Shown: in pieces, positions 31,182-33,498 of the stretch
Position numbering within the stretch: the stretch's first letter is position 1
How the letters are laid out: each line of letters opens with the position of its first letter
Source: Escherichia phage vB_Eco_K-01
Sequence record: PQ435593.1
Length of the DNA: 45,245 bases
Reading direction: 5' to 3' (one strand)
Position numbers and translations under genes: made by a program
The notes under the pieces: generated by a model
Told to the model about the DNA's origin: nothing
Database searches by the model: none
The model's input: only the letters and a program-made list of their open reading frames with translations

Positions 31182-31210
31182 TTGCACTCCCCAATATAAT
31201 AGCGTACTAT
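31182..31210 (+). promoter_or_regulatory. promoter with embedded palindromic operator (plus strand)
   Basis: TTGCAC, 17-bp spacer, TACTAT; the flanking 35 bp is near-identical to 40628-40656. Drives the plus-strand island gene at 31253. Confidence 0.5.
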
Positions 31211-31252
31211 TCACTTACACCAACGATGTTATCTCAAATCAGGAGTTATGTT

Positions 31253-31444
31253 ATGACCGGTATCACTATGTTCTTCTTAATTATTTTTGTAGCCGTTTAT
31301 TTTATCCCGTTTTTGGTGGCACATATGCGTAACCATAAAGCAAAGCTGGCGATATTCATGGCTAACTTATTTCTCGGGTGGATTCTGTTGCCGTGGGTAT
31401 TCATTTTAATCTGGGCTTGCAACTCGAACGTGAAAGAGAAGTAG
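31253..31444 (+). CDS. superinfection immunity-like small membrane protein
   Basis: Track ORF 31226-31444 trimmed to the ATG at 31253 (AGGAG ribosome-binding site). 63 aa with two transmembrane helices; YFIPFLVAHMRNHKAKLAIFMANLFLGWILLPWVFILIWAC matches the FIP..VA..RNH...AIF..N...GW signature of that family. Confidence 0.6.
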   Translation: MTGITMFFLIIFVAVYFIPFLVAHMRNHKAKLAIFMANLFLGWILLPWVFILIWACNSNVKEK

Positions 31445-31482
31445 GCTACTATAAGACAAATCCTAAACACGAGGAAGTAAGC

Positions 31483-32613
31483 ATGGCCCAGAAGAAAATA
31501 ACCGACGAGCAATTACAGGAAGAATTGAACGCCGGGATGAAGAATATCGATATCGCCCGTAAATACGGAATCTCAGACCGCGTTATCCGAATCCGTAAAG
31601 CGAAGCTGGCTAAGAAAGGCGTAGGCCACGGGCGCGACGTTAGTCACCTTGTACCAGACGGTTACAAGATTAAAGGAACGTCGTCCCTGGTGGACGAGTT
31701 CGGCAACACTAAGTTGCAATGGGTTAAGACCGACGCTGATGCCGAACGTCAGGTTGAATTGATGAAAGCCGTAATAGAGGGCATGAAGTCAGAGATTACG
31801 CCCGTTGCGCCTGTTAAACCGGCACGAGCCAAACGTGACGATAAACTACTCAATCTTTACACGGTATCTGATTTCCATCTCGGTATGTTAGCCTGGGCTG
31901 ACGAGAGCGGCGACGACTGGGATATGAAAATCGCGGAGGACTTATTCTCTCGTTGGTTTGATGCTGCGTTTCAGAAAGCACCGGATGCAGGTACGGGGGT
32001 TATTAATCTTCTTGGCGACTTAGCTCACTTCGATAGTCTTGACGCCGTTACACCGGCGAGTGGTCATGTCCTTGACGCCGACACGCGTTACCAGAAACTT
32101 GTCCGCTACATGATTCGCATGGTCCGCCGTGTTGTTGATATGGCTCTGGTTAAGCATAAAACTGTTCGCTTGCTTATAGTTCAGGGGAACCACGACGAAT
32201 CCGGGATGATTTGGCTGGCGGAGATGTTCAGCACACTGTACGACAACGAGCCTCGTGTATTCGTCGATACGTCGCCGGATGTTTACAAGATGGTGCAACA
32301 CGGCAAAACGACGCTGTTCTTCCATCACGGGCATAAAGCACGATTCGACGCTATCGAACCGGTTATGATTGCCAAGTTCCGTAAAGCGTTCGGCGAGAGT
32401 GTTTACAGCTACGCCCACGTAGGCCATCTGCACCACCAGAAGATTGTAGAAAGCCGTAACATGATTGTTGAGCAACACCGCACCTTAGCGGCTAAAGACG
32501 CCTACGCCTCTCGCGGCGGATGGATGTCGGGCCGCAGTGCAAATGTAATTACTTATAGCGCCGAATATGGCGAGGTCGCACGTTTAACTATTTCACCGGA
32601 GATGCTGGGATGA
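31483..32613 (+). CDS. calcineurin-like metallophosphoesterase with N-terminal HTH-like segment
   Basis: Track ORF 31378-32613 trimmed to the ATG at 31483. N-terminal HTH-like IDIARKYGISDRVIRIRKAK. Phosphoesterase motifs in order: VSDFHLG (D-x-H), LLGDLAHFD (GD-x-x-D), VQGNHDE (GNH[DE]), FHHGH, HVGHLHH. Confidence 0.65.
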   Translation: MAQKKITDEQLQEELNAGMKNIDIARKYGISDRVIRIRKAKLAKKGVGHGRDVSHLVPDGYKIKGTSSLVDEFGNTKLQWVKTDADAERQVELMKAVIEGMKSEITPVAPVKPARAKRDDKLLNLYTVSDFHLGMLAWADESGDDWDMKIAEDLFSRWFDAAFQKAPDAGTGVINLLGDLAHFDSLDAVTPASGHVLDADTRYQKLVRYMIRMVRRVVDMALVKHKTVRLLIVQGNHDESGMIWLAEMFSTLYDNEPRVFVDTSPDVYKMVQHGKTTLFFHHGHKARFDAIEPVMIAKFRKAFGESVYSYAHVGHLHHQKIVESRNMIVEQHRTLAAKDAYASRGGWMSGRSANVITYSAEYGEVARLTISPEMLG

Positions 32614-33098
32614 AAGATATTGTAATTTTCGATTTAGACGGGACATTGGCCGACGGTACCCATCGCTTACACCTGTTACCAAAAGATAACTACGGAGAAA
32701 CGTGGGCGTGGAAGCCATTTAACATGGCCTGCAAAGATGACGCTCCGATATACGACAATATCCATTTGTGTAGCGTACTGTGGCATTCCGGACTTACTAT
32801 AATTATCCTTACCGGGCGAAGTGATGACGCTGAGGAGGAGACTCGCGAATGGTTACGAGAGAATAACGTTAGGTTTGACACGCTAATCATGCGCAGCAAA
32901 CACGACAACAGAAAAGACATCGTAATTAAAGAAGAGGTGTTGCGTGCTTTCGGACTGGAAAGAATCTTGTGCGCATTCGACGACTCGCCGGTGGTGATTA
33001 AGCATTTCCGCAGCTTAGGAATCACGACGCACGCGGTTACGGGTTATGCGTGCGGCGGTGACTCAACGCACTTAAAATCACACGGAAAGGACAAGTAA
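32610..33098 (+). CDS. HAD-superfamily phosphatase
   Basis: 162 aa. Motif I IFDLDGTLAD (DxDGT), motif II ILTGR, motif IV CAFDDSP. Overlaps the upstream phosphoesterase stop. Confidence 0.65.
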   Translation: MKDIVIFDLDGTLADGTHRLHLLPKDNYGETWAWKPFNMACKDDAPIYDNIHLCSVLWHSGLTIIILTGRSDDAEEETREWLRENNVRFDTLIMRSKHDNRKDIVIKEEVLRAFGLERILCAFDDSPVVIKHFRSLGITTHAVTGYACGGDSTHLKSHGKDK

Positions 33099-33099
33099 G

Positions 33100-33330
33100 A
33101 TGACCAATAAATACAACCGCACAATGGCAAACACCCACGGCAGCACTATGACTGTAGACGTTTACGATGTGCTCCGCGCCTTCGATATCCGCGACCCGGC
33201 GCTACAGCACGCATTGAAGAAGCTGCTGTGTATGGGTCTTCGTGGGCACAAGGACACAGGAACCGACTTAGCGGAAGCAATTGAAAGTCTGGAGAAGTTA
33301 CGGGAGTATAGAAGCAATATCGACGAATAA
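33100..33330 (+). CDS. DUF3310-like protein
   Basis: 76 aa carrying the two short signatures I associate with DUF3310 (DVYDVL and KKLL...G.RG.K...DL.EA); GGAAAGGA ribosome-binding site. Confidence 0.5.
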   Translation: MTNKYNRTMANTHGSTMTVDVYDVLRAFDIRDPALQHALKKLLCMGLRGHKDTGTDLAEAIESLEKLREYRSNIDE

Positions 33331-33344
33331 CTACGAGGTATTTT

Positions 33345-33467
33345 ATGAAACTCATTATTAACTTCTTTAAAGCCTTAACAGGTAACGATTTTGAGATTGA
33401 CGGGGGTTGGCTAGTGTATGACCCTAATTTTGATACTTGGTTGTGGCATAAAGAGAAGCCTAGATGA
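33345..33467 (+). CDS. small hypothetical protein (not in ORF track)
   Basis: 40-aa ORF with a GAGG ribosome-binding site, ending just before the bidirectional terminator. Confidence 0.3.
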   Translation: MKLIINFFKALTGNDFEIDGGWLVYDPNFDTWLWHKEKPR

Positions 33468-33470
33468 GAA

Positions 33471-33498
33471 AAAGGCCCCTTTCGGGGCCTTAGTTTTA
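33471..33498. terminator. bidirectional rho-independent terminator
   Basis: Stem AGGCCCC / GGGGCCT with a TTTC loop, flanked by A-rich and T-rich tracts; between the plus-strand island and the minus-strand major tail gene. Confidence 0.6.

Follow-up and report, generated by a model that had tools for sequence, protein, structure and literature searches.

Phage T5 needs the metallophosphatase A1 to degrade host DNA, A1 also suffices for this degradation, and the deoxynucleoside monophosphate (dNMP) phosphatase Dmp accompanies it (10.64898/2026.04.02.716235). A module containing a metallophosphoesterase (MPE) gene occurs in 508/522 genomes of the Drexlerviridae, where the commonest genes right after the exonuclease, 'polynucleotide kinase' and dNMP kinase, have been read as 'enhancing nucleotide supply' and as extending the replication module (PMC13164509). 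Mutants of phage Bas1 that escape the defence system DRT7 carry missense or frameshift mutations in Bas01_0050, which is termed 'a nucleic acid-targeting phosphoesterase' and is toxic to E. coli on expression (DRT7/UG10 preprint, 10.64898/2026.02.16.706125). Another defence, PUA-Cal-HAD, which is active on a Tunavirinae phage, senses m6-dAMP set free by phage-induced breakdown of the chromosome, and shows that such breakdown products are of consequence in these hosts. The nucleotide kinase activity of T7 gp1.7 has been linked to DUF3310 (PMC9339283, PMC11897194). Here we relate to these systems an island of five plus-strand genes that lies within the minus-strand tail operon of Escherichia phage vB_Eco_K-01 (positions 31182–33498 of sequence record PQ435593.1; all 45,245 nucleotides (nt) of this record are referred to below as the window).

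The island encodes a predicted superinfection-exclusion protein (Sii), an MPE with an N-terminal helix-turn-helix (HTH) region, a haloacid dehalogenase (HAD)-type phosphatase, and two small proteins, p76 and p40. Our preferred reading, to which we give somewhat less than an even chance, is that a superinfection-exclusion gene is here joined to a cassette for DNA breakdown and nucleotide supply, an inferred role. Linkage of the MPE with a PseT-type HAD and a nucleotide kinase spans phage families. The leading hypothesis shifts from an anti-signalling system, favoured in an earlier note made from the nucleotide letters, to DNA and nucleotide turnover, and the island becomes an ordinary one for its subfamily. 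Few uncharacterised enzymes of enterobacterial siphophages are as widespread as the HTH-MPE, and many of the phages that carry it serve therapy and biocontrol; its substrate would tell how host takeover and the supply of DNA precursors proceed in them, and what some defences sense.

The metallophosphoesterase and its HAD partner

The two enzymes of the proposed cassette are encoded by adjacent open reading frames (ORFs; lengths in amino acids, aa):

31483–32613, plus strand: ORF 2, HTH-MPE, 376 aa, with a three-helix HTH at residues 8–44, a beta-hairpin and helix at 61–102, and the MPE domain at about 119–376

32610–33098, plus strand: ORF 3, HAD, 162 aa, a predicted stand-alone PNKP (T4 PseT)-type 3'-phosphatase

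The HTH-MPE matches phrog_704, 'DNA repair exonuclease', with an E-value of 6e-168, and as a divergent sequence it stays under the Pfam gathering scores, with 21.7 bits for Metallophos (cutoff 27) and 18.8 bits for Metallophos_2 (cutoff 21.5). The five MPE motifs, D130-x-H132, G178-D179, G235-N236-H237-D, H282 and G314-H315-x-H317, are invariant in 89 homologues of 28–98% identity, as is H182 of GDxxH, a histidine that is invariant in Mre11 as well. The AlphaFold2 (AF2) model (pLDDT 78.7) has an N-terminal three-helix HTH, then a beta-hairpin and helix, and then the MPE core, with which it stops at residue 376, i.e., there is no C-terminal capping domain. A Foldseek comparison of the model with the PDB returned the generic MPE fold, with Rv0805 (6.9e-9), a class III cyclic-nucleotide phosphodiesterase, in first place, and PolD DP1, purple acid phosphatases, Mre11 and GpdQ close behind; the family profile run against PDB sequences gave only spurious HTH matches and reached no PDB MPE. 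Judged by its motifs and modelled fold, an MPE beta-sandwich, the protein is assigned to the calcineurin-like metallophosphoesterase superfamily despite the sub-cutoff Pfam scores, and the complete calcineurin-type motif set described in the earlier note is borne out both by the invariance of the motifs and by the fold searches. Its nearest neighbours by fold are Mre11/SbcD. The predicted fold favours a nuclease without fixing the substrate.

The MPE start at 31483 is preceded by GAGGA, and the resulting 376 aa are the length of nearly all homologues. In MZ576217, the record of vB_EcoS-phiEc3, the coding sequence 12546–13766 begins further upstream, giving a protein of 406 aa that overlaps sii (window 31393–31482), and its start is therefore probably too far upstream; the ATG at 31483 has a ribosome-binding site (RBS) and yields the homologue-typical length. 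The family is present in 2052 phage records, including T1 (45.6% identity), Webervirus, Vibrio siphophages and N4-like roseophages, and matches 4642 clusters at 50% identity with a uniform length of ~370–420 aa. Most homologues align from within the first 60 residues, and the first ~20–60 residues are less conserved; the uniform length and the alignment start fit a conserved HTH-containing N-terminus.

Bas01_0050 of Bas1 (AugustePiccard) is a full-length orthologue of the island MPE (376 aa, 46% identity, E-value 2e-116). The viability of its frameshift mutants indicates that the orthologue is dispensable for the phage, and the combination of toxicity with defence escape upon loss is the behaviour of a trigger and not that of an inhibitor. 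Homology to T5 A1 was not detected by BLASTP (E-value 0.26) or hhalign (probability 0.4%), and the two proteins are in different PHROGs (phrog_704 and phrog_1745, respectively); A1 is retained as a functional analogy alone.

The stop codon of the MPE gene and the start codon of the HAD gene overlap as ATGA, which suggests translational coupling. The HAD matches PF25109 (HAD_PNKP) over profile positions 2–138 of 143 (E-value 8.7e-20, 71.7 bits, cutoff 27.6), and its residues D8, D10, R19, R70, D103, K107, D124 and D125 align to D165, D167, R176, R213, D254, K258, D277 and D278 of T4 Pnkp, which we take to be the essential ones of that enzyme; the HAD phosphatase assignment of the earlier note is thereby upheld. 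The best PDB relatives are Pnkp1 (4xrp, 5.3e-6) and T4 Pnkp (1ltq/5uj0), and Capnocytophaga Pnkp1 presumably belongs to a bacterial RNA-repair system. A family profile of 25 sequences scores 57.7 bits on a T4-like PseT phosphatase domain and 16.3 bits, at the N-terminal motif only, on T5 Dmp, which is in the same PHROG as the HAD (phrog_415) and gives no match to PF25109. Profile and Pfam thus put the HAD with PseT, and its assignment as a T5 Dmp-type 5'-dNMPase was dropped, with Dmp kept as a remote relative. No polynucleotide 5'-kinase is fused or adjacent to the HAD within the window. The gene is found in 1827 phage records. A stand-alone homologue with 44% identity is present in Krischvirus W115 (L094:2498–2974), directly after nrdA-nrdB, near denA and ~1.8 kb from the RNA ligase gene; W115 also has a full PseT.

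The gene order MPE-HAD-dNMP kinase recurs in Kagunavirus, in Webervirus and in 8 loci in which the MPE is merely ~50% identical. The profile of the relatives' kinase matches the T4 gp1 dNMP kinase (1DEK, 1.2e-6) and gives no match to Pnkp, on which grounds a split Pnkp composed of HAD and P-loop kinase was rejected. In several loci of the ~50% identical group (L065, L067, L070, L089 and others), an ORF of 114–135 aa, Cys-rich and Endo VII-like by motif, precedes MPE-HAD-kinase. In the podophage PhiM1, an MPE of another family (phrog_221) precedes a HAD of the same type; this MPE has no similarity to the island protein, and the arrangement is counted as an analogous pairing only.

Island frame, exchangeable slots and regulatory elements

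Megablast of 30600–33600 gave a 100% full-length match, in reverse orientation, to vB_EcoS-phiEc3 (MZ576217/NC_073323; Kagunavirus, Guernseyvirinae), and the DNA of the island region matches 456 phage records (Jerseyvirus, Kagunavirus). Near the island, positions convert as record = 45159 − window; near 40.6 kb this offset is ~77 nt off and would overrun the record end. The shifting offset indicates that the window is not a simple reverse complement of MZ576217, and may be permuted or carry indels. For synteny, 80 IMG/VR loci were fetched via the MPE alignment. The frame of chaperone (−), slot 1 (+), MPE (+), slot 2 (+) and tail tube (−) is present in 36/36 of the loci flanked by a tail-tube or chaperone gene; across the Guernseyvirinae-type loci examined, the predicted gene order is fixed and variation is confined to the two slots flanking the MPE. 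The earlier note had taken the island for an accessory insertion. This invariance, the 456 matching records and the MPE module of 508/522 Drexlerviridae genomes argue against that description.

The remaining features of the island and its borders are:

31182–31214, plus strand: promoter-like element TTGCACTCCCCAATATAATAGCGTACTATTCAC, with −35 TTGCAC, a 17-nt spacer and −10 TACTAT

31253 (31226)–31444, plus strand: ORF 1, sii, a plus-strand ORF for a 63-aa protein (from 31253) of the Imm_superinfect family with two predicted transmembrane helices

33100–33330, plus strand: ORF 4, p76, 76 aa, phrog_2452 (2.1e-36), beta-hairpin plus three helices, remote DUF3310/SaV-like fold

33345–33467, plus strand: ORF 5, p40, 40 aa, with an RBS; weakly supported as a gene

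33472–33491, both strands: bidirectional intrinsic terminator AAGGCCCCTTTCGGGGCCTT, which ends the island and also lies 3' of the convergent tail-tube gene

33496–34668, minus strand: tail tube (major tail) gene (PF18906, 1.2e-36), convergent with the island

30658–31074 and 30293–30652, minus strand: two tail assembly chaperone ORFs (PF08748, 1.1e-7, and PF23812, 1.4e-18)

The chaperone ORFs are divergent from the island promoter and are followed by the tape measure gene. Across 31–34 kb the GC skew is positive and the GC content goes down to 0.46–0.49, and conserved counterparts of the island proteins are encoded by hundreds to thousands of phage genomes, so these are not chance ORFs. The terminator hairpin, AAGGCCCC-TTTC-GGGGCCTT, was scored by the terminator call on both strands and is kept at ≥90% identity in 217 phage records; in the annotation of fBC-Eco01, a terminator is likewise placed on both strands at the island end. 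From these sequence features the island is described as a self-contained, apparently separately transcribed non-structural unit within the tail operon, co-oriented with the replication genes. The anatomy given in the earlier note, an opposite-strand unit of four to five plus-strand genes with its own promoter and a bidirectional terminator, is confirmed by the five ORFs, the repeated element and the hairpin.

The putative promoter at 31182–31210, TTGCAC-17-TACTAT, matches sigma-70 at merely 7/12 positions, and was not called in a scan for the sigma-70 consensus. It is contained in a 33-nt element, TTGCAC[A/T]CCCCAA[T/C]ATAATAG..TACTATTCA, of which the window holds three full copies (7715–7747, minus; 31182–31214, plus; 40628–40660, plus) and two partial copies (11452–11471 and 14363–14382, both minus), the number expected by chance being 0. 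A phage promoter was annotated by PHIRE at the homologous place in fBC-Eco01, and the element core lies 274–449 nt 5' of the MPE start in 27 Kagunavirus-type IMG/VR loci. The promoter call is accepted because the element is repeated and conserved, and not for its consensus strength. Inside it, a palindrome AATAG-N4-CTATT (31198–31211) overlaps the putative −10 and could serve as operator to an HTH protein of the phage, namely a Cro-like repressor or the MPE with its own HTH.

The copy at 7715–7747 is positioned just upstream of a long operon on the other side of the genome that opens with small early-type genes. The partial copies are within or antisense to replication-module genes, one of them ~370 nt upstream of a cro-like gene. 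The third full copy is directly followed on its 3' side by a 67-aa ORF (40684–40887, plus; RBS AGGAGG), a second isolated opposite-strand unit in the structural block, for which Pfam, PHROG and PADLOC gave no match.

Slot 1 is occupied by Sii, which matches PF14373 (1.8e-13, 50.6 bits, cutoff 27.9) and phrog_1039 'immunity to superinfection' (1.8e-23), in agreement with the superinfection-immunity family to which the earlier note had assigned the membrane protein. Its ATG at 31253 has AGGAG 7 nt before it, and the alternative ATG at 31226 is without an RBS; in the translation, two hydrophobic stretches are seen on either side of HMRNHKAK. Its predicted role is to exclude superinfecting phage. 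Among the relatives, slot 1 holds Sii, a 108–120 aa signal-peptide protein (phrog_14165) or a 97-aa membrane protein; as unrelated envelope proteins take the place of Sii at the same position, the slot may be an exchangeable one that accommodates envelope or exclusion proteins. The replacements are located at L021:5609–5935, L040:1752–2114 and L036:5669–5962, and phrog_14165 is without an assigned function.

Slot 2 was compared in 34 IMG/VR Guernseyvirinae loci (L013–L064). It contains the HAD with a 184-aa P-loop kinase in 16 loci and p76 in 18, and both together in none; the p76-type slot may in addition have small ORFs, an HNH gene or an Ant/Rha gene. The slot 2 of the window (HAD, p76 and p40; 32610–33467) is the sole arrangement that breaks the HAD-kinase linkage, and at full length the combination HAD-p76-p40 is found only in phiEc3. 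Read from gene content, the window-specific trait is a rare, apparently recombinant slot 2 in which the HAD is retained and the gp1-type kinase is replaced by p76 and p40; the location within the tail operon is common to all Guernseyvirinae.

The p76 gene is present in 773 phage records. Its AF2 model (pLDDT 86.8), when searched against BFVD, matches after its own family DUF3310, SaV-like and gp1.7-type proteins with E-values of 7e-3 to 3e-2 and query TM-scores (TMq) of 0.53–0.70, e.g., a DUF3310 protein of P60 (8.4e-3, TMq 0.68), a SaV-like protein (8.9e-3) and a nucleotide kinase (1.5e-2, TMq 0.70). T7 gp1.7 matches DUF3310 over residues 122–184 (4.5e-23), and a by-eye pattern, xY...[IV][DE]V[IY][DE]V[IL]...LK[KY]..R.G.K...DL..A, is common to this segment and p76. 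On the other side, p76 and two homologues do not match PF11753 (DUF3310) in Pfam even at E ≤ 10, 0/34 clusters of p76 homologues have any Pfam domain, and an hhalign comparison of p76 with T7 gp1.7 was not significant, the two having no PHROG in common. The DUF3310 call of the earlier note therefore agrees with the fold and the by-eye motif, but not with the Pfam hidden Markov model or hhalign, and the label is a reasonable remote call rather than demonstrated membership. For p40, GAGG is found 8 nt upstream of the start; its DNA is present only in phiEc3, BUCT823 and hz69, no family match was obtained, and tblastn found no match in the 80 related loci.

Proposed role and competing explanations

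In the breakdown-and-supply reading, Sii would be placed in the inner membrane, where it would keep superinfecting phage out. The HTH-MPE would be a Mn2+-type binuclear phosphodiesterase that is brought to DNA by its HTH, and would act as a nuclease, most plausibly on host DNA, which would explain the toxicity and dispensability of the orthologue as well as its sensing by DRT7. The coupled PseT-type HAD would strip 3'-phosphates from DNA ends or from 3'-nucleotides, giving products to be degraded further or reused, and a nucleotide kinase, gp1-type in most HAD-bearing relatives and perhaps p76 in the window phage, would feed dNMPs into the deoxynucleoside triphosphate (dNTP) pool. The net effect would be host takeover together with DNA precursors for a phage without annotated ribonucleotide reductase or thymidylate synthase; neither enzyme is in the annotation tables of phiEc3 and fEg-Eco06.

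A wider version of this proposal, which we regard as possible but doubtful, would make the phrog_704 HTH-MPE the host-chromosome-degrading nuclease of T1-like Drexlerviridae and Jersey/K1-like Guernseyvirinae. Together with the PseT-type 3'-phosphatase and an interchangeable kinase it would then form a portable host-DNA-to-dNTP cassette that is sensed by DRT7 and possibly by PUA-Cal-HAD; as its kinase, most relatives would have the gp1 type and the window phage a minimal DUF3310/gp1.7-like protein. A literature search for the genetics of host DNA degradation by T1 found nothing.

Several observations weigh against a role in DNA breakdown and nucleotide supply. Cleavage of the Mre11/SbcD type leaves 3'-OH ends, and the need for a 3'-phosphatase is for this reason not explained. 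The name 'DNA repair exonuclease' for phrog_704 is an annotation label only. The gp1-type kinase is absent from the window, and p76 has the DUF3310-like core of T7 gp1.7 only, without its Cys-rich N-terminal two-thirds. Among Salmonella phages, 373 records have the MPE compared with 45 with the HAD, and most Jerseyviruses are without HAD or kinase. There is no specific homology between T5 A1 and the MPE. A weaker point comes from a Kagunavirus time-course transcriptome, in which sii, the sole island gene mentioned, is placed in the 'late' class with DNA polymerase and methylase genes, the timing classes being unusual (PMC12645636).

The same pair of enzymes might instead heal or repair ends as a counter-defence. 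Damaged ends, carrying a 2',3'-cyclic phosphate or present as blocked DNA ends, would then be trimmed or opened by the MPE and freed of 3'-phosphates by the HAD before sealing by a host ligase, so that phage DNA or host tRNA/mRNA is rescued after cleavage by nucleases of a defence, as with T4 PseT and RNA ligase against PrrC. We consider this unlikely. The HAD is a clear PNKP-phosphatase homologue in which all aligned catalytic residues are present, and its top PDB match is Pnkp1, with its presumed RNA-repair link; the relatives' kinase, however, is of the T4 gp1 type and not Pnk-type, which does not fit a split Pnkp. MPE domains do perform end healing in bacterial Pnkp, and translational coupling of MPE and HAD would suit such a division of labour; toxicity of the orthologue in uninfected E. 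coli, on the other hand, suits an aggressive nuclease more than a repair enzyme. An RNA ligase gene lies ~1.8 kb from the Krischvirus HAD, but that phage has the HAD besides its full PseT, suggesting a different role, and neither an RNA nor a DNA ligase is annotated in phiEc3 or fEg-Eco06; an RNA-repair operon was rejected, since a ligase is not among the annotated genes. An equally low probability is given to a nuclease of phage replication or recombination, in which a Rad50-less, Mre11-like MPE would act on phage ends, hairpins or concatemer junctions and the HAD would clean 3' ends for the polymerase, host DNA not being the target. The gene is persistent in Drexlerviridae and Guernseyvirinae, yet frameshift mutants of the Bas1 orthologue are viable. 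It is found among replication and recombination genes in other lineages and is co-oriented with the replication module in the window, but these phages have other recombination nucleases (PD-(D/E)XK and VRR-NUC in phiEc3; RecE-like and Erf-like proteins in Bas1). The model lacks a capping domain, no SbcC/Rad50-like partner is annotated in phiEc3 or fEg-Eco06, and toxicity of the orthologue when expressed alone indicates an attack on host DNA or on some other target in the host.

Very improbable, in our view, is the explanation that the earlier note had put first, namely that MPE and HAD destroy the nucleotide second messenger of a signalling defence (CBASS, Pycsar, Thoeris or type III CRISPR). 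Rv0805 is the best Foldseek PDB match, the MPE fold includes cyclic-nucleotide phosphodiesterases, and the island has the shape of a moron with its own promoter and terminator; however, the MPE has an N-terminal HTH of the DNA-binding type, which is probably conserved across the family, and the HAD is of the PseT type, with a dNMP kinase gene beside it in relatives. Loss of the orthologue aids defence escape and its expression is toxic, and the MPE gene is persistent across two large phage groups, unlike the patchy anti-defence genes that are known. The anti-signalling phosphodiesterases known to us use other folds (2H in Acb1, metallo-beta-lactamase in Apyc1), and the island enzymes, being of the MPE and HAD folds, have neither. 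A PADLOC scan of six proteins gave no match, and none of the papers searched links a phage metallophosphoesterase to cyclic-oligonucleotide anti-defence. The evidence points instead in the direction that the earlier note had named as its alternative, nucleotide salvage or end repair. Of the two things that the note had named together as refuting its idea, relatives do carry the island frame invariantly, and the role in nucleotide metabolism is a proposed and not a demonstrated one.

Relation to described systems

The novelty of the island is low. Its components belong to known families and are publicly annotated, and an MPE-HAD-kinase cluster is already in print. The claim of a previously undescribed system thus does not hold: in MZ576217 the genes are annotated as 'superinfection immunity protein', 'calcineurin-like phosphoesterase', 'acid phosphatase' and two hypotheticals, the exonuclease-PNK-dNMP kinase cluster has been discussed (PMC13164509), and there are experimental data on the Bas1 orthologue.

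Sii is like the T4 Imm family (PF14373) in passing the Pfam cutoff, in its small size and in its two transmembrane helices; it differs in that sii opens an island located in the tail operon of a siphovirus, and in that the relatives have unrelated envelope proteins in its slot. The MPE shares the motif II GDxxH histidine with Mre11/SbcD, and Mre11 is among its close PDB fold matches; unlike Mre11/SbcD, however, it is without a capping domain and a Rad50/SbcC partner, and the HTH plus beta-hairpin module is unique to the MPE family. With T4 PseT and Capnocytophaga Pnkp1 the HAD has PF25109 and the DxDGT, (S/T)GR, RKDxxxK and DD motifs in common; compared with T4 PseT, there is no fused 5'-kinase and no annotated ligase partner, and the kinase adjacent to it in relatives is gp1-type.

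The pre-early T5 protein A1 and Dmp likewise combine an MPE-fold protein with a HAD-type phosphatase, within a set of genes for host takeover; A1 is toxic, and it is essential, whereas the Bas1 orthologue is not essential. Within the phrog_704 family, the toxicity and DRT7 escape data come from the Bas1 orthologue alone. The phrog_704 proteins of Bas1, T1 and the Drexlerviridae have the same HTH-plus-MPE architecture as the island MPE. In T1, Bas1 and Webervirus, and for the Drexlerviridae phrog_704 gene in general, the MPE gene is located 3' of a gene for a DNA methyltransferase and immediately precedes the lysis cassette, i.e., outside the tail operon, whereas in the island it is on the opposite strand within it. 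The Drexlerviridae cluster of exonuclease, 'polynucleotide kinase' (HAD) and dNMP kinase has the gene order of most Kagunaviruses, and the role proposed for it is the same. Compared with this cluster, the island has lost the gp1-type kinase and has p76 and p40 instead, and an Imm-family gene, a dedicated promoter and a terminator have been added.

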